Below are positions 3,873 to 13,918 of a stretch of 64,000 nucleotides of DNA, in pieces. Each line of letters opens with the position of its first letter. Positions within the stretch are counted from its first letter, which is position 1. A program made the translations under genes and the position numbers. The notes beneath the pieces are model-generated. The model was not told the DNA's origin, did no database searches, and was given only the letters and a program-made list of their open reading frames with translations. This DNA is from Nannocystis bainbridge (GTDB lineage Bacteria > Myxococcota_A > Polyangia > Nannocystales > Nannocystaceae): NCBI RefSeq assembly GCF_028368995.1, contig NZ_JAQNDL010000001.1, positions 576,001-640,000 on the forward strand, given 5' to 3'.

Positions 3873-5711
3873 CTACACCTCCTGCCCCTGGCGCCCGTGG
3901 TCGTCGTGCGGGGTCGGCGGCCCGAGGCCGTTCAGCGCGGCGATCCGCTCGATCGGGAGCTTCGGCGTGCGGTCGGCGTACAGCAGGCCGTTGGCCTCCT
4001 GATAGGTGTCGGCGAACTGCGTATAACAATAGCCGGCGAGGATGTCCTGGGCGCGGACCACCGAGAACAGCGCGTGCAGCCGGCGCTCGAGGTCGGCCGC
4101 GTCGTCGCTGCGGCTGTAGCCCCAGGTGCTGCGGCGGTCAGGCGAGCAGGCGATGCCGCCGAACTCCGACAGGACCACCGGATGGTTGAACTCCTGGAAG
4201 TTGCCGAGCACCAGCTCGCGGCCGCCGAAGCGCTCGCGCTCGCACAGGTTGTGGCGCACGTTGGGCGCCTGGTAGCGCGACAGCATGCGCTCCGGGTCGA
4301 CCTCGTAGTCGTGGATGCCGACGATGTCCGTGGCGACGCTCTCCCACCCGTCGTTGCCGACGACCGGGCGGTTGGGGTCGAGGGTCTTCGTCAGGTGGTA
4401 CAGGGCGGTGACGTAGTGCCGCTCGGACGGGTTGTCCGGCAGGTTGGGGACCCCCCACGACTCGTTGAAGGGGACCCACGCGACGACGCACGGGTGGCTG
4501 CTGTCGCGCTCCAGCACCTGCATCCACTCCTGGGTGAGCGCCTGCACCGAGCGGCGGGTGAAGCGATAGGCGCTCGGCATCTCCTCCCATACGAGCAGGC
4601 CCAGGCGATCGGCCCAATAGAGGTAGCGCGGGTCCTCGATCTTCTGGTGCTTGCGGACCGCGTTGAAGCCCATGGCCAGCGCGAGCTCGACGTCGCGGCG
4701 CAAGGCCGCCTCGTCCGGGGCGGTGAGCCCGGTCTCCGGCCAATAACCCTGGTCGAGCACCATGCGCAGGCGGATCGGGCGGCCGTTGAGCAAGATCTGG
4801 TCGCGGTGCACGCCGATCGTGCGCAGCGCGGTGTAGCTGCGCACGGCGTCGACGACGGCGCCGCCGGGGCCGATCAGATCGACCTCCGCCTCGATGAGGT
4901 TGGGCGCCTCCGGGCACCACAGCAGCTCGTTGCGCGCGTCGTCGATGCCGGGATCCGACAGCGGGATCCGGCGGTGGATCTCGTGGTGCTGGCACTGGTA
5001 GCGATCCTCGACGAGCAGACAGTCGCCCGAGAACAGCCGCAGGCGCAGGCTGTAATCCGGGCTGACGACGCCGACGATCGTGCTGCTGAAGCCGATCTCC
5101 CAGCGGAACAGGTTCGAGGTCCAGCGCAGGTGCGCCAGGTGGACGGCGGGGACCCGCTCGATCCACACCGATTGCCAGATCCCCGTGGTGCGCTGATACC
5201 AGATCGAGTGCGGCACCTCCTGCCAGTCCTGCTTGCCGCGCGGCTTGGCGAGGTCGTGCGGATCGTCGAGGGCGCACACGACGACCTCGATCGGCTTCCT
5301 GGCGCCGCCGAGCCGGGTCACCTCGACCGAGAACGGGGTGTAGCCGCCGACGTGGGTCGCGACCTCGGCGCCGTCGATCCACACCGTGGCAGCGTAGTCG
5401 ACCGCGCCGAAGCGGAGAAACAGCAGCTCGCCGGCGGCCGCGGCCGGGAGGGTCACCTTGCGGCGGTACCAGCAGGCGGCGTAATAGCCGTGCTCACCGA
5501 CGCCGCTGCGCTCGGTCTCCGGAGCGAACGGGACCTGGATCGTTCGGTTCCAGGCGACCTCCCGCGGGTGCCGCCAGCGCGCCTCACGATCGAGCGCGAA
5601 GTCCCAGGCGCCGTCGAGGCTGGCCCAGGTGTCGTCGCCCCGGCGCAGCATCGGCCGCAGATAGCCGGGGCGCGACGGGGCCACGGCGCTGTTGGAAGAG
5701 GGTCGGGTCAT
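3873..5711 (-). CDS. Glycoside hydrolase family 2
   Basis: FGAVDY, HVGGYTPF, GIWQSVW, LDQGYWP, WVPFNESWG (acid/base) and SEFGG (nucleophile). Confidence 0.88.
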   Translation of the reverse strand: MTRPSSNSAVAPSRPGYLRPMLRRGDDTWASLDGAWDFALDREARWRHPREVAWNRTIQVPFAPETERSGVGEHGYYAACWYRRKVTLPAAAAGELLFLRFGAVDYAATVWIDGAEVATHVGGYTPFSVEVTRLGGARKPIEVVVCALDDPHDLAKPRGKQDWQEVPHSIWYQRTTGIWQSVWIERVPAVHLAHLRWTSNLFRWEIGFSSTIVGVVSPDYSLRLRLFSGDCLLVEDRYQCQHHEIHRRIPLSDPGIDDARNELLWCPEAPNLIEAEVDLIGPGGAVVDAVRSYTALRTIGVHRDQILLNGRPIRLRMVLDQGYWPETGLTAPDEAALRRDVELALAMGFNAVRKHQKIEDPRYLYWADRLGLLVWEEMPSAYRFTRRSVQALTQEWMQVLERDSSHPCVVAWVPFNESWGVPNLPDNPSERHYVTALYHLTKTLDPNRPVVGNDGWESVATDIVGIHDYEVDPERMLSRYQAPNVRHNLCERERFGGRELVLGNFQEFNHPVVLSEFGGIACSPDRRSTWGYSRSDDAADLERRLHALFSVVRAQDILAGYCYTQFADTYQEANGLLYADRTPKLPIERIAALNGLGPPTPHDDHGRQGQEV

Positions 5712-5736
5712 ACGCGCCGCTGGGTTGTCGCCGCTG

Positions 5737-7008
5737 TCAATCGCCGTCCGGCCGGCCCAGCGCGCCGGGGTGGCGCTCGCACACCACGGCCAGCGCGGCC
5801 TCGGCGGCGCGCAGGGTGCGATCGATGTCGTCGTCGGTATGGGCGGCGCTGACGAACCAGAGGTGACGCGGGTGCAGCAAGATCCCGCGCTGGACCATCT
5901 CGGTGTAAAAAGTCGCCGCGACGGCGTCGCGCACCCGCAGATCGGCGTGGGTGAACCGCAGGAACGGCATCGGCGGCAGCGGCTCGCCGTAGGCCAGAGC
6001 CGGCACGCCGGCGCGGTCGACGGCCGCCTGCAGGCCGGCGATGAGGCGCTCGCCTAGCCGCCACACGTGATCGGTGACGGCGTAGCGATCGAGCACATCG
6101 AGGGTGGCGAGCGCCGCCGCGATGCCGGTGGTCTCGCCGTGGTAGGTCGCCGACATGTGGAGCTCGGCGCCGTGCCGCATGACCTCGCGCCGCCCGACCA
6201 CCGCGGCGACCGGCCAGCCGTTGCCGAGCGCCTTGCTGAGCGTGGTGAGGTCGGGCACGACGCCGGCCCACTGCTGAAACGAGCCCGGGCGGATGCGCAG
6301 GCCGGTCTTGATCTCGTCGAGGATGAAGACGGCCCCGTGCTCACGCGCGTGCTCGGCGAACAGCCGCGCGAGCTCGGGCCGCGACGCGGGCATCATCTCC
6401 GGCGCGAGGATCACCGCCGCGACCTCGCCCGGGTGCGCGCGCAGCAGCTCGCGCAGCGACTCGGGCTCGTCGGGGCGGAACTCGAGCACCTGCCTCTCGA
6501 GCCCGTCGGGCACGAAATCGGCGAGCGGCAGGCACCAATCGTGCCACCCGTGATAACCACAGCGGGCCACGCGACGCCGACCGGTGGCCCGTCGCGCCAG
6601 CCGCAGCGCCGCCGTGGTCGCGTCGGAGCCGGTCTTGAAGAACGCCCCCATGTCGGCGCCAGGCAGGCGCGCGACCAGCCGCTCGACGAAGCGCAGGTGC
6701 AGCGGGTGATTCAGGGTCAGCAGGTTGCCGCGCCGCGCCTGCTCGAAGGCCGCGCGGTCGACCTCCTCGTGGGCGTAGCCGAGCAGCAGCGGGCCGAAGG
6801 CCATCACGTAGTCGATGTATTCGTGGCCGTCGACGTCCCACACGCGACAGCCGGCGCCGCGCGCGAAGTACATCGGCGAATCGGCGGGGGTCACGAGCGG
6901 CCGCCCGGAGAGGTGATAGCCGCCGGGGATCAGCGTGCGCGCGCGCTGCAGCAGCTCCTGCGAGGCGAGGAACGAACGCGCCGGCGGTGTGAGGCCCTGC
7001 TGGTCCAC
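5737..7008 (-). CDS. Class III PLP-dependent aminotransferase (GSA-aminomutase-like fold)
   Basis: WDVDGHEYID, KTGSDA, GYHGWHD, DEIKTGLR, LSKALGNG (PLP lysine). Confidence 0.85.
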   Translation of the reverse strand: MDQQGLTPPARSFLASQELLQRARTLIPGGYHLSGRPLVTPADSPMYFARGAGCRVWDVDGHEYIDYVMAFGPLLLGYAHEEVDRAAFEQARRGNLLTLNHPLHLRFVERLVARLPGADMGAFFKTGSDATTAALRLARRATGRRRVARCGYHGWHDWCLPLADFVPDGLERQVLEFRPDEPESLRELLRAHPGEVAAVILAPEMMPASRPELARLFAEHAREHGAVFILDEIKTGLRIRPGSFQQWAGVVPDLTTLSKALGNGWPVAAVVGRREVMRHGAELHMSATYHGETTGIAAALATLDVLDRYAVTDHVWRLGERLIAGLQAAVDRAGVPALAYGEPLPPMPFLRFTHADLRVRDAVAATFYTEMVQRGILLHPRHLWFVSAAHTDDDIDRTLRAAEAALAVVCERHPGALGRPDGD

Positions 7009-8439: not shown

Positions 8440-9435
8440 TCACAGCGCCAGCAGGCCGCGCGCCGCGTCGAGCGCCAGCGGCTGGGCCCCGTAGCTGGCC
8501 GCGCCGACGCCCCAGCGCGCGAAGCCGGCGGGCTCCGGCGCCTCGTCGGTGGCTGCGCCATGGCTCCACCAGCCGGTCACGCTCAATCGCTTGCCGCGCG
8601 CGTACGGCGACACCGGCGTGACCGCGTGCACGGTCTCCGCCGCGACGTTGAACACGATCAGCGTGTTGAATGACGGCACCACCTGCGCGCCGCTCGGGCC
8701 CCACACGAACTGACCGCCCGAGGCCGCGTCCCAGTCGCGGGCGAGGTGCCACACGAACGCGACGGCGCGCGCCAGCTTGTGATCGGCGTGCGGCGCCGCG
8801 AAGTCGCCGGCGACGTAGCGCGTCGCCCCGAGCTCGAGCGGACCGCCGCAGTCGCGGCCCGACAGCGCCGCCGCGAGCTCGCGGCTGGCGGCGGCGCCGA
8901 ACAGCGCGCGGCTGGCCGCGATCGTCGGGCCGGCGGGGTCGGCCTCGTCGAGCACGTGGTGTCGATAATGCGGCGAGCTGCCGAACGCCTCGACGGCGCG
9001 CCAGCGGACGGCGGCGTCGAGGGCCGCGCCGACCCGCTCGGCGAGGTCGCGGCGCAGCGCGTCGCGGATGACCACGGCCCGCCCGGCGGCCAGCTGGGCG
9101 GCGATGTCGTCCTTGCGCGCCAGCGCGGCCGGGTCGAGCGCTTCGACCAGCGACGTCGGCCACGCCGCGGGCGCGACCGCGGGCGTGCGTTCGTCGACCA
9201 GCAACCCCTCGGCGACCAGGCCGGCGACCGTCGCCGCCAGCTCGGCAGGCGAGCCGAACTCGGCGAGCGTCGCGTGGGCCGCGGCGATCGTGCGCGGGCA
9301 GGCGAACGCGGCCAGCGTCTGGAACACCCGCGGCGCCAGCGAGAAGGCGCGCCGACCGACGAGCGCGACGACCGTCGCGTCAGGCCCGGGGCGAAACACG
9401 CACGCGGGCGCGAGGACATAGGACGACTCCGGCAT
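8440..9435 (-). CDS. Fe(II)/2-oxoglutarate oxygenase (prolyl-hydroxylase-like) with an N-terminal RRE/winged-helix-like domain
   Basis: YxxGDFxxPHAD ... W(D)xxxGG ... PxFNTLxxF ... VHAV ... RLSVTGW. The first ~85 aa show a strands-then-helices pattern ending LVAEGLLV. Confidence 0.8.
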   Translation of the reverse strand: MPESSYVLAPACVFRPGPDATVVALVGRRAFSLAPRVFQTLAAFACPRTIAAAHATLAEFGSPAELAATVAGLVAEGLLVDERTPAVAPAAWPTSLVEALDPAALARKDDIAAQLAAGRAVVIRDALRRDLAERVGAALDAAVRWRAVEAFGSSPHYRHHVLDEADPAGPTIAASRALFGAAASRELAAALSGRDCGGPLELGATRYVAGDFAAPHADHKLARAVAFVWHLARDWDAASGGQFVWGPSGAQVVPSFNTLIVFNVAAETVHAVTPVSPYARGKRLSVTGWWSHGAATDEAPEPAGFARWGVGAASYGAQPLALDAARGLLAL

Positions 9436-9525
9436 TGGCACCACCACTCAGCGCTCGTACCCGCGGCCGCGCCGTCGCGTCAAGCCGCAGCGCGCTCGAC
9501 CCGTCGCGGGCGAAATGAAGCATGT

Positions 9526-9542
9526 AAAAATCACGGATTTTT
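9526..9542. promoter_or_regulatory. AT-rich perfect inverted repeat AAAAATC-ACG-GATTTTT in a divergent intergenic region (candidate operator)
   Basis: 7-3-7 palindrome in otherwise very GC-rich DNA, between the oxygenase and precursor genes. Confidence 0.4.
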
Positions 9543-9737
9543 CGCTGCGACATCGCCGAGCACGCCCTGTCATCCCGACAGAGGCGCACGCACGGCATGT
9601 CCCGCCGCCACGCATTATCGAACATCCACGCGCACGATCGCCCGGGACCCGGGGACGAGGTGCCACGAATACGGAGCGTGTCCTTGTATTTCGACACAGG
9701 CAGCTCCGCGGACCCGAACACACAGGAGAGAAGCGAC

Positions 9738-9899
9738 ATGAAGGAGACGATTCAAGAGGTCGAGGGCGTGAAGGAGATCGATCCGGCCCACATCCACGAC
9801 CTGTTCCAGCTCGAGACCCTGGCCCCGCCGAGCGAGGCCAACGGCATGAGCTGCTGCGTGATCATCTGCCGGACCTGGACCCCGGGCCAGGCGGGCTGA
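9738..9899 (+). CDS. Putative RiPP precursor peptide, 53 aa (MKETIQEVEGVKEIDPAHIHDLFQLETLAPPSEANGMSCCVIICRTWTPGQAG)
   Basis: AGGAG SD at 9724-9728; GC3-biased codons; acidic leader plus Cys-rich C-terminus; directly upstream of modifying-enzyme genes. Confidence 0.82.
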   Translation: MKETIQEVEGVKEIDPAHIHDLFQLETLAPPSEANGMSCCVIICRTWTPGQAG

Positions 9900-9925
9900 A
9901 CCAGGGCGCCCGCCACCACCACGCC

Positions 9926-10732
9926 ATGACGATTCCACCGGACAACTTGTCGGAGTATCGCGACCACGGCGCGACGGTGCTGCGCGGCGTCATCCCGGCG
10001 AGCTGGCAAGCCCGCCTGGAGGCGGCGATCGACCGGGTGCTCGCCGCGCCCGGCTCGATCGCCGTCGACTACACCCCGCCGGACCGACCCGGTCGCTTCT
10101 ATAACGATTTCTTCTTGTGGCTGCGCGAGCCCGAGTTCGCCGCGTTCGTGCGCGAGTCGCCGCTGCCCGCGCTGGCCGCGGAGCTGCTCGGCGCGGCGAA
10201 GGTCGGGTTCTTCTTCGACCAGCTGTTCGTCAAGGAGCCGCGCACCCAGGAGAGCATGCCGTGGCATCAAGACCTGCCGTACTGGCCGGTCGCGAGCGAC
10301 GCGCTGGTGACGATGTGGGTGCCGCTCGACGTCGTCACCCGCGAGAGCGGCGCGGTGGTCTACGCCCGCGGCTCGCACCGCTGGGGTCGCGTCGCCAAGC
10401 GCTGGCGGTTCGCCCGCGACGGCGCGACGGCCCCGCCCGAGACGGAGGAGATCCGCGAGGCGTCGTTCATGTACTGGGACCTGCGGCCCGGCGACGTGCT
10501 GGTCCACCACCCGCTGACGGTGCACGCGTCGGGCGGCAACGCGACGCCGGGGACCCGCCGCCGCGCGCTCGCGCTGCGCTACTTCGCCGACGGTTGCGTG
10601 TACCAGCCGCGCGAGGGCGACATCCTGCAGAACCCGCGCGTGCGCGAGCTGCTGCCTGACCTCGCCCTCGTCGCCGGCGAGCCGCTACGCGGCCCGGAAT
10701 TTCCGATCGTGTGGCCCCCGGAGGTCGCGTGA
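9926..10732 (+). CDS. Phytanoyl-CoA dioxygenase (PhyH)-family Fe/2OG dioxygenase
   Basis: DQLFVKEP, WHQD, WVPLD, GSHRW, PGDVLVHH..TVHASGGN, RRALALRY. True start ATG 9926; the ORF track over-extends it. Confidence 0.88.
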   Translation: MTIPPDNLSEYRDHGATVLRGVIPASWQARLEAAIDRVLAAPGSIAVDYTPPDRPGRFYNDFFLWLREPEFAAFVRESPLPALAAELLGAAKVGFFFDQLFVKEPRTQESMPWHQDLPYWPVASDALVTMWVPLDVVTRESGAVVYARGSHRWGRVAKRWRFARDGATAPPETEEIREASFMYWDLRPGDVLVHHPLTVHASGGNATPGTRRRALALRYFADGCVYQPREGDILQNPRVRELLPDLALVAGEPLRGPEFPIVWPPEVA

Positions 10733-11556
10733 CGCCGCCGCCGCTGGTCGGCTTCGCCTATCGCCGGCAGTATCGCGCCGCGCTGTGCGAGGCGGCGCGC
10801 GGGCCCGACGTGCTCGAGCTGATGGCCGAGTCCTTCGACCCGCGCCTGCCCGGCCGGATCGACGACGTGCGAGCGCTGCGCGAGCGCTACGCGCTGATCG
10901 GGCACAGCGTCGGGCTGTCGATCGGCTCGGTCGAGCGCCCGCCGCAGGCCTACCTCGACGGGCTGGCGCGCTTCGTCGAGTTGGTCCAGCCGCGGGTCTA
11001 CAGCGACCACTTCGCCGTCACCTACGCCGGCGGGCGCGACCTCGGGCACCTGACGCCGATCTGGTACGGCGAGCAGGCGCTCGAGGTCGTCGTGAACAAC
11101 CTTACCGCGGCGCGGCGCTTGCTCGGCGTGCCGATCTGCCTCGAGCTCATCGCCGAGCCGTTCTCACTGCCCGGCGCGCAGTGGGACCAGGCCCGCTTCG
11201 CCGCCGAGGTGTGGCGCGCGTGCGGCTGCGGGATCCACCTCGACGTCACCAACGTCTTCATCAACGCCCGCAACTCGGGTCAGTGCCCGCGGGCCTCGAT
11301 CGCCGCGCTGCCGGCCGAGGCGGTGCAGATGATCCACGCCGTCGGCTTCGGCCGCTACGAGCACGGCGAGCTGGCCGACACCCACGACCAGGACATCCAG
11401 CAGGAGCTGTGGGACCTGCTCGCGTACACCTTCACGCGCGTGCGCCCGACCACCGCCGTCATCGAGCGCGACGCCAACTTCCCGCCGTACGAAGCGCTGC
11501 TGGCCGAGGTCGATCGCATGCGCTCGCTCGCCACGCCCCTGGAGGTCGCCTCGTGA
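10729..11556 (+). CDS. DUF692 / multinuclear non-heme iron-dependent oxidative enzyme (MNIO; MbnB/TglH/ChrH family)
   Basis: GHSVGLSIGS, SDH, LELI, LDVTN, IHAVG, DTH, IERDANFPP: the iron-ligand pattern of DUF692. GTG start overlaps the upstream stop (GTGA). Confidence 0.9.
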   Translation: MTPPPLVGFAYRRQYRAALCEAARGPDVLELMAESFDPRLPGRIDDVRALRERYALIGHSVGLSIGSVERPPQAYLDGLARFVELVQPRVYSDHFAVTYAGGRDLGHLTPIWYGEQALEVVVNNLTAARRLLGVPICLELIAEPFSLPGAQWDQARFAAEVWRACGCGIHLDVTNVFINARNSGQCPRASIAALPAEAVQMIHAVGFGRYEHGELADTHDQDIQQELWDLLAYTFTRVRPTTAVIERDANFPPYEALLAEVDRMRSLATPLEVAS

Positions 11557-13691
11557 CACCGCTGACCCTCTGCATGATCGTCAAGTTCCCGCCGATCCAG
11601 GGCGGCGTCAGCCAGCAGAGCTACTGGCTGGCGCACAACTTCGCGCGCGCCGGTCACCGCATCCACGTCGTCACCAACGCGCTCGAGGCCGCGTCCGACT
11701 ATCGCATGTTCCTGCCGGCGGCCGAGCGCCCGCACCTCGAGGGCGAGTACCCCGGCGGCGGGTTCGTCCGCCTGCACGCGAGCGACGAGGCCGGGCTCGA
11801 GGGCAACTACATCCCGTACGCCAACCCGTACGTCAGCAAGCTGGCGGCGCTGGCCCGCGACGTGGTCCGCGAGCACGCCTGCGATCTGATCTGGGCCGCG
11901 TACCTCGAGCCCTACGGGGTCGCGGCGGCGCTGGCGTCGAAGCTCACCGGGGTGCCCTACGCGGTCCGCCACGCCGGCAGCGACATCGCCGGGCTGGCGC
12001 AGCTGCCGGCGCGCCAGAACCTCTACCTCGACGTGCTCCGCCACGCGAGCCTGGTGGTCACCGCGCCGTTCCTGCGGCCGACGCTGGAGCGCGTCGGGGT
12101 CGCGCACGCGCACATGTTCGCGGTGCCGCTCGCCGCATACGCCAGCGCGGGCTTCGAGCCCGACGGGCCGAAGCTCGACGTCGAGGCATTGCTCGACGAG
12201 GCCGCGGGCGAGCGCGGGCCGTGGCCCCGGCCGGCCCGGCGCTTCGACCCCGCGCTGCCGACGTTCGGCATCTACGGCAAGGTCAGCGGCTACAAGGGCA
12301 TGTTCGAGGTCGTCGCCGCGCTCGGCGAGCTCGCGGCCCAAGGTCGCCGCTTCAATCTTTTGACGTTGGTCGGCGCGCGCGGGCCGGCGGTCACGGCCCT
12401 GCAGCAGGCGGTCGCGCAGGCCGGCATCGCCGAGTCGACGTACGCGCTGCCGTTCTTGCCGCACTGGATGGTGCCGCGGTTCATCCGCACGTGCACCGCC
12501 GTGTGTTTTTTGGAGAACCGGTTCCCGATCGCCATCCACACGCCGCAGGTCGGGTTCGAGATCCTCGCGTGCGGCCGCTGCCTGATCGTGTCCGAGGAGG
12601 TGCGATCGAAGACGCAGCGGCGCGCCGATCTGGTCGACGGGGTGCACGCGCTCGTGATCGACGATCCGGCCGACGCGGCGCAGGTGCGGCGGGCGCTGGC
12701 GCGGGTGCTCGACGACCCCGCCGAGGTGCGGGCGATCGGCGCGCGCGGGCGAGAGTTCGTGACCGGGCGGTTCGCCGCGCCGGACGTGTCGGCGGTGGTG
12801 AAGCGGCTGCGCCGCGTGATCGAGGAGGCAAACCCGATGTCCCTGGAGGGCCTGCAGCGGACCCTGAGCGAGCTCTACGCCGATCCGTCGCTGCGCGCCG
12901 CGCTGGCGGCGGGCGAGGAGGCTGGCCTGCACGGCCGCGACCTCGACGACCGCGAGCGCGCGGCGGTGCTGGAGCTGGGCCGGCGGCTGATGCCGCAGGT
13001 CGAGCGCTTCGGGCAGATGCTCGTGCACAAGCGGCTCGAGTATTTCCTCGAGCTGTTCGCCGCGACCGCGCCGCACCTGCGGGCGCACGAGCCGGCGCTG
13101 TTGGCTGCGTTCGCGCGCGAGTTCGATTTCCGCTGGCGCGCGCCGGCCGAGGACGTCGCGTACTTCGGCGAGTTCCTGCGCCGCCTGCTGGTCGCGCCGT
13201 GGCCGGCCCACGTGCGCGAGCTGGTGCGCTACGACGAATGCATGTGGCGGGCCGAGACGACCGACGACGACGCCGCGCCCGCGTTCGAGCGCCTGCTCGA
13301 GATGCAGATCACCGAGCCGCCCGGCCTCGGCGCGGCGCCGCTGAGCGCCGAGGACCGCGTCGCGCTCGCGCCCGGGGTGATCGTCGAGCGCTTCGCTCAC
13401 CCGGTGCACCGCCTGGCCGCGGAGGGCCCCGAGGCGCGGTTCGAGCCGGCCGCGACGGTGATCGTGTTCACGCCCCGGCGCGGAGCGACCGCCGCCCGCG
13501 CCCACGTGATGAACGAGGAGCTCGTCCGCCTGGCCACAGCCGCGGGCGACGGCCATCCGGTGGCGGCGCTGCTCGACGAGGCCGCGGCGCGTCACGCGGA
13601 GCGCCCGGCCGAGGCGGTGCGGCAAGCCGCCCTGCGCGCGCTGCAACGGCTCGGCGAGCGTCACGTGCTCGTGCGCGCGCCGCTGCGGTGA
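11553..13691 (+). CDS. GT4-like glycosyltransferase fused to a C-terminal MNIO-partner-like (DUF2063/RRE-type) domain
   Basis: GTG at 11553 overlaps the MNIO stop. N-terminal part: KFPPIQGGVS, HAGSDI, GKVSGYKG, EILACG. From ATG 12837: MSLEGLQRTLSELYADP...KR... ending in a winged-helix-like segment. Confidence 0.8.
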   Translation: MTPLTLCMIVKFPPIQGGVSQQSYWLAHNFARAGHRIHVVTNALEAASDYRMFLPAAERPHLEGEYPGGGFVRLHASDEAGLEGNYIPYANPYVSKLAALARDVVREHACDLIWAAYLEPYGVAAALASKLTGVPYAVRHAGSDIAGLAQLPARQNLYLDVLRHASLVVTAPFLRPTLERVGVAHAHMFAVPLAAYASAGFEPDGPKLDVEALLDEAAGERGPWPRPARRFDPALPTFGIYGKVSGYKGMFEVVAALGELAAQGRRFNLLTLVGARGPAVTALQQAVAQAGIAESTYALPFLPHWMVPRFIRTCTAVCFLENRFPIAIHTPQVGFEILACGRCLIVSEEVRSKTQRRADLVDGVHALVIDDPADAAQVRRALARVLDDPAEVRAIGARGREFVTGRFAAPDVSAVVKRLRRVIEEANPMSLEGLQRTLSELYADPSLRAALAAGEEAGLHGRDLDDRERAAVLELGRRLMPQVERFGQMLVHKRLEYFLELFAATAPHLRAHEPALLAAFAREFDFRWRAPAEDVAYFGEFLRRLLVAPWPAHVRELVRYDECMWRAETTDDDAAPAFERLLEMQITEPPGLGAAPLSAEDRVALAPGVIVERFAHPVHRLAAEGPEARFEPAATVIVFTPRRGATAARAHVMNEELVRLATAAGDGHPVAALLDEAAARHAERPAEAVRQAALRALQRLGERHVLVRAPLR

Positions 13692-13880
13692 CTGCCATGA
13701 TCGCCCGAGTCACTCGGCGAGCACCACATCGTGCGCCGTTGCAGTGACTGCCGTGATCGTCCGTATCACTCGGCGAGCGTCACGGGATCGTGCGCGCCGC
13801 TGCTGTGACTGCCGTGATCGTCCGTATCACTCGGCGAGCGTCACGTGATCGTGCGCGCGCCGCTGCAGTGACTGCTGTGA
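13650..13880. repeat. Four imperfect ~60-bp tandem repeats; the first is the 3' end of the GT gene
   Basis: Units beginning CTCGGCGAGC at 13650, 13713, 13769 and 13830. Confidence 0.85.
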
Positions 13881-13918
13881 TTCGCTGCGAGCCCGGTCGA
13901 CTACGATCGGGCGCTCGA

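Follow-up and report, generated by a model that had tools for sequence, protein, structure and literature searches.

Gene content of the locus

The stretch analyzed here (the window) comprises 64,000 nt of Nannocystis bainbridge (RefSeq assembly GCF_028368995.1, contig NZ_JAQNDL010000001.1, positions 576,001 to 640,000 of the forward strand). It contains a short open reading frame (ORF) of 53 codons plus a stop at 9738..9899 on the + strand (ATG at 9738, TGA at 9897-9899). By its conservation, Shine-Dalgarno (SD) sequence and codon usage, this ORF is a genuine precursor gene of a new family of peptides associated with multinuclear non-heme iron-dependent oxidases (MNIOs), with an unusual set of accompanying enzymes whose chemistry we infer.

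The gene order is precursor, PhyH-family Fe/2-oxoglutarate (2OG) oxygenase, MNIO and a glycosyltransferase (GT) fused to an MNIO-partner-like domain (GT-partner), all on the + strand, with a second 2OG oxygenase encoded divergently on the - strand. Overlaps couple the genes downstream of the precursor: the GTG start of the MNIO gene lies 22 nt into the 3' end of the PhyH gene, and the GT-partner start overlaps the MNIO stop by 4 nt. The 290-nt intergenic region between the divergent genes (9448..9737, no strand) carries the SD sequence of the precursor gene and aligns in conserved blocks with the Nannocystis relatives. No sigma-70-like promoter or terminator-like site was detected in 9300-10100, and no Rfam family matched near threshold in the same interval.

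Coding evidence and anatomy of the precursor

Translation of 9738-9899 (+) yields MKETIQEVEGVKEIDPAHIHDLFQLETLAPPSEANGMSCCVIICRTWTPGQAG, followed by the stop codon. We divide the peptide into a leader (residues 1-36, 9738-9845, + strand) and a core (residues 37-53, 9846-9896, + strand). The leader is acidic (8 Asp+Glu vs 2 Lys+Arg, pI 4.37) and contains the putative recognition motif L22-F-Q-L-E-T-L28 (9801..9821, + strand). Its first 35 residues include no Sec-type hydrophobic segment, the highest 10-residue Kyte-Doolittle mean, a crude measure, being 0.51. All three Cys and the only Trp of the peptide fall within the core. Cys39 (9852-9854), Cys40 (9855-9857) and Cys44 (9867-9869), together spanning 9852..9869 on the + strand, are the presumed MNIO targets because the MNIO of the cluster is BufB/HvfB-like.

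The start codon is preceded by an AGGAG sequence at 9724-9728, with a spacing of 9 nt, and an AGGAGA box also precedes all four copies in the Nannocystis genomes G005 and G007. The GC content by codon position is 0.59/0.44/0.93, and the third-position value (GC3) is close to that of the PhyH, MNIO and GT genes (0.94-0.96). The ORF finder lists this frame as a 100-aa ATG ORF (9597..9899), of which the 53-aa form is the 3' part. At 72.5% GC, the window holds 302 six-frame ORFs of at least 53 aa, so the length of the ORF by itself is unremarkable; conservation, context and frame-specific GC3 place it above chance.

These observations bear out most of a preliminary description of the locus, which had proposed a precursor peptide lacking a Sec signal, with an AGGAG SD, typical codon bias, an acidic leader carrying a DLFQLETL motif, and a core holding all three Cys and the only Trp, the whole hidden inside a longer ORF. 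Its characterization of the gene as easily missed applies to the window, where the ORF is nested; the orthologs in N. pusilla and Nannocystaceae bacterium ST9 are already recorded by NCBI as hypothetical proteins.

Conservation and distribution

A profile of the precursor copies matched 4 of the 73 Nannocystales genomes. The window genome has one copy and the three others have two tandem copies each, the fourth genome being that of Nannocystaceae bacterium ST9. Among the 41 relatives searched, three (G000, G005 and G007) match at E ~1e-21 or better, the same-genus genomes G005 and G007 down to E ~1e-26. Searching 1.84 billion representative proteins with the profile brought up five small ones (51-65 aa, E 1.7e-25 to 1.1e-9), so that the peptide proposed in the preliminary description is conserved in frame in four genomes as well as in these five proteins. 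The same search also matched P0008 (1163 aa, E 1.6e-5) and P0009 (2207 aa, E 1.8e-4), both of which contain 4-5 repeated stretches corresponding to leader positions 5-33 of the precursor profile.

The window genome contains no precursor paralog (next-best match, E 0.4). Samples of 401 genomes of the phylum and 401 genomes of the class gave chance-level matches only, and a second Myxococcota class, with 182 genomes searched, yielded no match. Several candidates were rejected as chance: G334 (E 7.3e-4) and G267 (E 0.003) lie inside 512- and 690-aa frames at loci without MNIO, PhyH, GT or 2OG genes; G543 (E 4.6e-4) is antisense to a 661-aa gene; and 16 further genomes among the 41 relatives gave E values of 0.085-0.93. 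A metagenome scan with the precursor alignment produced 94 pattern matches, none of which was confirmed.

The alignment comprises 11 rows, the first copy of G007 being omitted (it differs by one residue from the first copy of G005). Twelve positions are invariant in all 11 rows: M1, F23, L25, E26, T27, L28, N35, G36, C39, V41, I42 and C44. Position 40 is Cys in eight copies and Val in three. Only C39 and C44 are thus invariant among the Cys, and the conserved unit is C-x4-C within a core of the form x-S-C-(C/V)-V-I-(I/L)-C, not the SCCVIIC pattern with CC-x3-C spacing that the preliminary description had put forward. That description had also made its proposal depend on conservation of the ORF and of its Cys positions; the ORF is present in four genomes, the C39/C44 pair is found in 11/11 copies, and the leader motif that it had singled out is likewise retained throughout (F23 and L25-L28). 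The overall layout is a variable acidic N-terminus, an invariant LFxLETL...NG segment, the short core, and a variable tail rich in W, K, T and P after C44. Tandem copies diverge mainly in the tail. The C-terminal residue is G, S, P, T or D; Gly ends 6 of the 11 copies, including at least one in every genome with two copies.

The 5' end of the window precursor aligns with copy 1 and its tail is copy-2-like, so that the single gene looks like the product of a recombination that deleted one copy.

The nucleotide pattern raises the alternative that the ORF is untranslated, its conservation stemming from a DNA or RNA element or from a spurious frame in high-GC DNA. The 69 nt encoding L22-C44 (9801-9869) are identical in the window, both G005 copies and one G007 copy, the other G007 copy having a single change, and the flanking genes in this comparison are ~90% identical; the 302 window ORFs of equal or greater size also speak for caution. 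Gene conversion between tandem copies combined with strong codon bias can explain the identical block, though it is unusual; an additional constraint acting at the nucleotide level is another possible cause. Against a noncoding origin stand the frame-specific GC3 of 0.93, the well-spaced SD in the window and in all four Nannocystis copies, the in-frame indels of 6 and 13 codons in the ST9 copies, the lack of any Rfam family near threshold, and amino acid conservation that holds down to 37% identity in independently predicted proteins. Between the first copies in G005 and G007 there are four differences, each at a third codon position. We regard the untranslated alternative as extremely improbable; that the peptide is coded and conserved is strongly supported by the sequence comparisons.

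Synteny of the precursor and its enzymes

The same gene set is syntenic in N. pusilla (L024), ST9 (L025) and Nannocystis sp. RBIL2 (L026), in keeping with the linkage of the precursor to MNIO, PhyH, glycosyltransferase and an RRE-type (RiPP recognition element, where RiPP denotes a peptide that is ribosomally synthesized and undergoes post-translational modification) domain that the preliminary description had drawn from the window. The other window neighbors, a class-III aminotransferase gene, the ORF at 3873..5711 and the gene of a phosphoenolpyruvate (PEP)-utilizing enzyme, are not conserved in these three loci. Among the small proteins found in the protein search, P0005 and the GT-partner protein P0015 report contigs of equal size (11,099,100), as do P0007, the GT-partner protein P0016 and the 2OG oxygenase P0136 (16,018), and P0010 and the 2OG oxygenase P0134 (8,373). 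These equal contig sizes, the sole basis for the linkage, suggest that P0005, P0007 and P0010 each lie on one contig with relatives of the enzymes. Taken together, the genomic comparisons strongly support the view that the peptide is accompanied by this enzyme set elsewhere, both in other genomes and on other contigs.

In two relatives, a class-I S-adenosylmethionine (SAM)-dependent methyltransferase gene, absent from the window cluster, lies between the PhyH and MNIO genes; it is intact in ST9 (L025, 5234-6019) and split over two reading frames in N. pusilla (L024, 5227-6000). In RBIL2 (L026, 6001-8278), the MNIO match covers only residues 11-102 and is followed directly by the GT from residue 41; this junction is either a cluster-disabling deletion or an assembly error.

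The MNIO

The MNIO (DUF692) gene occupies 10711..11556 on the + strand and encodes a 281-aa protein (Pfam MbnB_TglH_ChrH, 4.9e-64). Its NCBIfam scores are 180.9 bits for BufB, 147.8 for HvfB, 77.5 for ApyH, 45.7 for MbnB and 28 for ChrH, and its PDB matches are 3bww (2.8e-21) and MbnB (9.8e-14). In L027 (4049-6741), an MNIO 39% identical to that of the window is encoded downstream of a membrane protein whose C-terminus is first Ser-rich, then Gly/Cys-rich. We rejected L027 as an instance of the same system; it is a different one with a Gly/Cys-rich membrane protein, and it resembles the TIGR04222 group.

These scores bear on the possibility that the ORF is a true precursor acted upon by other MNIO chemistry, such as formation of a Cys-derived cross-link or macrocycle, beta-carbon excision, hydroxylation or backbone cleavage. 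The product then need not be a metallophore and could be an antibiotic or a signal. The window MNIO scores below every curated equivalog cut-off, and the hydrophobic CVIIC core, followed by a W/K tail, is unlike the Lys-Cys and EGKCG motifs of the captophorins as these are given in the portions of the literature covered here. MNIOs are known for many reactions, according to PMC13733907, and both a partner outside Pfam DUF2063 and a signal-less precursor occur with non-bufferin groups in the covered text of PMC12452194. Yet among the named families BufB and HvfB clearly score highest (180.9 and 147.8 bits vs at most 77.5 for ApyH, MbnB and ChrH), and the core has an invariant pair of Cys, C39 and C44. 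We consider such other chemistry rather unlikely, while giving it appreciable weight.

The two oxygenases

The PhyH-family Fe/2OG oxygenase gene (9926..10732, + strand) encodes a MysH-like protein of 268 aa (Pfam PhyH, 2.5e-34). It matches the PDB structure of MysH (9c9n) with 3.2e-40 over residues 3-231 (~220 aligned), and the iron-site motifs align, with WHQDLPYWP and HHPLTVH in the window product corresponding to WHNDLPYWP and HHFLTIH in MysH. The two enzymes are thus akin in sequence and in their metal-binding motifs. They would differ in substrate, as no genes for mycosporine-like amino acids lie nearby and the substrate of the window enzyme must therefore be a peptide. MysH is proposed, in the covered text of PMC10666671, to alpha-hydroxylate an N-linked glycine, after which glyoxylate is lost. 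That a Gly of the precursor is the PhyH target, either the C-terminal Gly found in 6 of the 11 copies or the invariant G36, is speculation.

The divergent 2OG-Fe(II) oxygenase (8440..9447, - strand) is a 335-aa protein matching Pfam 2OG-FeII_Oxy_4 (1.9e-13) and Oxy_3 (7.8e-12). Its catalytic domain spans approximately residues 193-302, with H220-x-D222 and H274 invariant in three orthologs, and among solved structures the enzyme is closest in sequence to the prolyl hydroxylases OGFOD1 (8.4e-6) and PHD2 (~0.1). The N-terminal ~190 residues belong to no detectable family, and the first 94 have no Pfam match. The AlphaFold 2 (AF2) model, built on a 3-row alignment, has a mean predicted local distance difference test (pLDDT) score of 34.

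The GT-partner fusion and leader recognition

The last gene of the operon encodes a 712-aa protein of two parts (AF2 model, mean pLDDT 86.6). Residues 1-428 (11553..12836, + strand) form a GT4-type (GT-B) domain (Pfam Glycos_transf_1, 7.1e-8), for which BshA is a structural match (Foldseek 1.3e-16; VIA Z 31.2, root-mean-square deviation 4.4, 367 residues aligned); both fold searches of the 712-aa protein returned GT-domain matches. G17, G18, K243, K248, E321 and E336 are invariant across 24 GT-partner relatives, and we take these residues, the first two of which lie in the N-terminal Gly-Gly loop, to belong to the donor site. The remainder (12837..13691, + strand) is an MNIO-partner-like domain, consisting of a helical bundle (residues 429-583) and a winged-helix, RRE-like unit (~600-710). 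This domain gives NCBIfam matches to HvfC (5.5e-4; 19.9 bits vs a cut-off of 142) and PqqD_rel_X (0.0026), ESM-Atlas feature matches to DUF2063/NGO1945_C clusters (score 0.90) and, in a profile search of the PDB, only PqqD (E 0.24). Its fold is probably related to those of the DUF2063 partners, as far as the structural model indicates, and would be PME-type-2-like in the terms used in the covered text of PMC12452194.

Near the 3' end of this gene, at 13650-13881, we observed an array in which the final ~40 nt of the GT-partner gene, TGA stop included, are present in four tandem copies. The copies are spaced by 56-63 nt and are 62-92% identical to the first; the array extends into the spacer before the convergent gene of the PEP-utilizing enzyme and occurs once in the genome.

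Complex modeling of fusion residues 428-712 with the precursor was performed in three runs and with three controls, using our own alignments. The score was 0.77 in all three runs and at best 0.02 in the controls; 58 of 80 solved complexes attained the mark of the 0.77 runs, as did 2 of 110 mismatched pairs. At least 58% of contacts are shared between the runs, with pLDDT of at least 48 for the partner and ~50 for the precursor. Confident contacts involve precursor residues 19-20, 22-28 and 30-31, that is, LFQLETL and the prolines after it, and the motif is placed against the RRE-like unit at its strand 647-657 and helix 681-703. The model accordingly predicts that the leader motif adds a further strand to the partner domain's RRE. 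The preliminary description had suggested modeling the leader with two RRE-like domains. The prediction supports one of these, at the C-terminus of the GT-partner protein; the other, at the N-terminus of the 2OG oxygenase, is unsupported given the lack of a Pfam match and the low pLDDT of the model in that protein.

The wider family of GT-MNIO loci

Proteins with the full GT-partner architecture (24 aligned) share 31-88% identity and come, by name, from Bryobacteraceae, Streptomyces, Tengunoibacter and Myxococcota, that is, from several phyla; many more relatives combine a GT domain with a tail annotated as PqqD. The GT-partner relative P0016 (967 aa) carries a C-terminal creatininase-family domain (Pfam 3.7e-46, residues 728-956). 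As this is, we believe, the family of the mycofactocin peptidase MftE, the domain may by analogy be a fused leader peptidase.

We then considered metagenomic loci, taking the best 80 found with the GT-partner alignment. An MNIO gene is present on the same strand in 45 of the 80, including all eight loci with the full architecture; of the 35 loci without it, seven have at least 2.5 kb of sequence on both sides. The precursor hidden Markov model (HMM) found nothing below E 1 in six-frame translations of these 80 loci. GT-MNIO pairing is thus, judging by gene content, common, and the window peptide family is one narrow branch of it.

Several of these metagenome loci encode other small proteins. 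In four GT-containing soil loci, L070 (3865-4401), L083 (3741-4226), L119 (3905-4282) and L124 (4067-4420), conserved proteins of 117-178 aa are encoded just upstream of the MNIO gene and end in ...WRMYPN..HP.W... followed by C-x-C-x-C-G-C; they are probably another precursor family. In L059 (1981-2133) and L129 (48-275), a 50-aa peptide with SLFQLDLV...DCP(F/W)MC is encoded upstream of a full-length GT-partner gene. It resembles the window precursor in layout and, given the outcome of the HMM search, is not a detectable relative. In L058, on a contig of 39% GC, a 64-aa Cys-rich ORF (...PCSNGMCSPGCKGCKNCKS) at 5705-5899 (-) is convergent to the GT-partner gene, and no small ORF was found upstream of the MNIO gene.

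Related GT-partner/MNIO loci such as L058, with no obvious small precursor beside the enzymes, leave some room for the idea that the small protein of the window is a conserved accessory (a regulator, chaperone or immunity factor) and that the substrate is encoded elsewhere. Its anatomy is, however, that typical of RiPP precursors, with a variable N-terminus, a recognition motif, a short Cys core and a hypervariable tail. The tandem copies differ mainly in the tail; the invariant leader motif makes the predicted RRE contact; and the genome holds no other paralog, the next match having E 0.4. An accessory role therefore appears very unlikely.

Relationship to known systems

The closest points of comparison are the captophorins (bufferins, oxazolin/HvfA and fontiphorin), copper peptides with 5-thiooxazoles whose pathways pair an MNIO with a PME-type-1 partner, and the signal-less PME-type-2 groups considered below. 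BufB and HvfB are the best named families of the window MNIO, at scores under both curated cut-offs, the window partner has helical and RRE-like domains with a weak HvfC match, and conserved Cys are the likely targets. The window precursor differs in lacking a Sec signal and in having two invariant Cys in a hydrophobic C-x4-C, as opposed to the Lys-Cys, Cys-Lys and DUF2282 motifs described in the covered portions of the captophorin literature. The window partner, moreover, is not recognized by Pfam DUF2063 and is fused to a GT4 glycosyltransferase, and two Fe/2OG oxygenases are added. The precursor has no Pfam or NCBIfam match, and no DoxX protein was found among the cluster genes scanned against the same two collections. 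Because its partner is not of the DUF2063 PME1 kind and it is not itself a Cys-rich, Sec-signal precursor, we do not file the peptide with the captophorins; its mode of working is probably related to theirs.

With the methanobactins (MbnA/MbnB/MbnC), the window system shares a short, signal-less precursor of leader and core and an MNIO as the key enzyme, and its two Cys, separated by a few residues, could form a pair of N,S chelating units. It differs in that the MNIO scores 45.7 bits for MbnB against a cut-off of 325 and in having the GT fusion and the oxygenases instead; Pfam and NCBIfam scans found no match to the MbnC family on any cluster protein. Methanobactin operons carry genes for a TonB receptor and a MATE exporter, neither of which was found at the window cluster.

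A peptide-dedicated glycosyltransferase in a RiPP cluster, with Cys as a possible acceptor, recalls the glycocins and other glycosylated RiPPs. The S-glycosyltransferases of the SunS/ThuS type in glycocins are of family GT2; the window enzyme differs from them in having a GT4/GT-B fold and in being fused to an RRE-bearing MNIO partner.

The Nannocystaceae also include the genus Plesiocystis. One example of the PME-type-2 systems comes from Plesiocystis, according to the covered text of the Antoine et al. 2025 atlas (PMC12452194), and the signal-less 'adjamnio' groups of this type described there resemble the window system in placing a Cys-motif peptide beside an MNIO, with a DUF2063-like partner that Pfam misses. 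Compared by description, none of the motifs given in that text, CxxC (adjamnio-7), CxxCC (adjamnio-IV) and at least 8 Cys (adjamnio-I), matches the window family. The words 'glyco', 'Nannocystis' and 'PhyH' do not occur in the text of PMC12452194 and two of its supplement files, a scope that excludes its figures and Fig. S3. More generally, the literature searched, figures and some supplements aside, contained no description of the precursor family, of the GT-partner fusion or of glycosylation in an MNIO pathway.

An MNIO, a partner outside DUF2063 and a signal-less peptide also make up the pearlin set-up in the covered text of PMC12452194, so that the ORF might encode a TglA-type scaffold on whose C-terminus a small amino-acid-derived molecule is built and then released. 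The C-terminal residue, though, varies among the 11 copies (G, S, P, T or D) and the invariant residues are internal. Pfam and NCBIfam scans of the cluster genes revealed no peptide-aminoacyl-tRNA ligase, and no NCBIfam TglH model is among the five matches of the MNIO at E up to 0.01. We give a pearlin-type scaffold almost no credence.

Proposed pathway and its significance

We consider it likely that the ORF is the precursor (A) gene of an A-PhyH-MNIO-GT/partner operon with a divergent 2OG oxygenase, which would direct a leader-dependent, Sec-independent MNIO RiPP pathway. Maturation would be cytoplasmic, as the peptide has no Sec signal. The fusion protein would bind the leader and offer the core to the BufB/HvfB-like MNIO, which by analogy with its nearest named relatives would oxidize C39 and C44 to 5-thiooxazole-type N,S ligands. 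Two such units four residues apart would, we presume, suit one soft metal ion in the manner of methanobactin. The fused GT4 domain may add a sugar to the tethered peptide, either at a thiol/thiolate or at a hydroxyl introduced by one of the oxygenases. The MysH-like oxygenase may hydroxylate a glycine C-alpha, leading to C-terminal amidation of the Gly-ending copies, or possibly to cleavage at the invariant Asn-Gly, and the prolyl-hydroxylase-like enzyme may hydroxylate a Pro. The product is likely to be a small peptide that binds copper or another metal.

Several observations weigh against parts of this pathway. The MNIO is far below the curated cut-offs (BufB, 180.9 vs 310; HvfB, 147.8 vs 360), so its reaction could differ from thiooxazole formation. 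No Pro is universal in the core tails, and P0005 and P0007 have none. The sequence links of the partner domain to MNIO partners, though consistent, are weak, and even with E values up to 1 allowed, Pfam DUF2063 matched neither the full-length protein nor its C-terminal 284 aa. Solved structures include many RRE-leader complexes, and since the predicted binding mode is the classical one, the passing complex score may reflect likeness to them; the model was also built on our own alignments, with a precursor pLDDT of only ~50. Neither PhyH nor the 2OG oxygenase was found in any of the 80 related metagenome loci, and the GT thus does not generally need them. The enzyme linkage of P0005, P0007 and P0010 goes back to equal contig sizes. 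The genes conserved in the cluster across the relatives include none for a protease, an exporter or metal uptake. Finally, two of the four orthologous clusters show decay, and with the MNIO truncated in G005 and the methyltransferase split in G007, the pathway may be dispensable or decaying in some strains.

A bolder reading of the same operon, which we hold only tentatively and would not expect to be borne out in full, is that the peptide is the first recognizable member of an undescribed class of glycosylated MNIO peptides. The leader-binding partner would be fused to a GT4 enzyme so that Cys oxidation and glycosylation take place on one tethered substrate, and the MysH-like enzyme would replace a protease or amidating enzyme. 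The sugar might then reside on the sulfur of the new thiooxazole, and glycine C-alpha hydroxylation would lead to C-terminal amidation or to oxidative removal of the leader at Asn-Gly. If this is true, members of the class would occur widely among soil bacteria and draw on several different precursor families, given the MNIO gene in 45 of the 80 loci.

Few enzyme families in peptide natural products are as large as the MNIOs or as surprising in their chemistry, and the substrates assigned to them, in the covered portions of the MNIO surveys, are nearly all Sec-exported, Cys-rich copper peptides. The Nannocystis locus differs from these in its clean, short, signal-less substrate with only two invariant Cys, in the fusion of the partner to a glycosyltransferase and in its two further oxygenases, one of them related to an enzyme that N-dealkylates glycine. 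With one 53-aa peptide and four enzymes, the system is tractable. GT and MNIO genes are paired in many soil metagenome contigs, which suggests that the locus belongs to a sizeable group yet to be explored, and study of this system could reveal a new type of MNIO product, a new RRE-guided peptide glycosyltransferase, and the evolution of MNIO partners by fusion.

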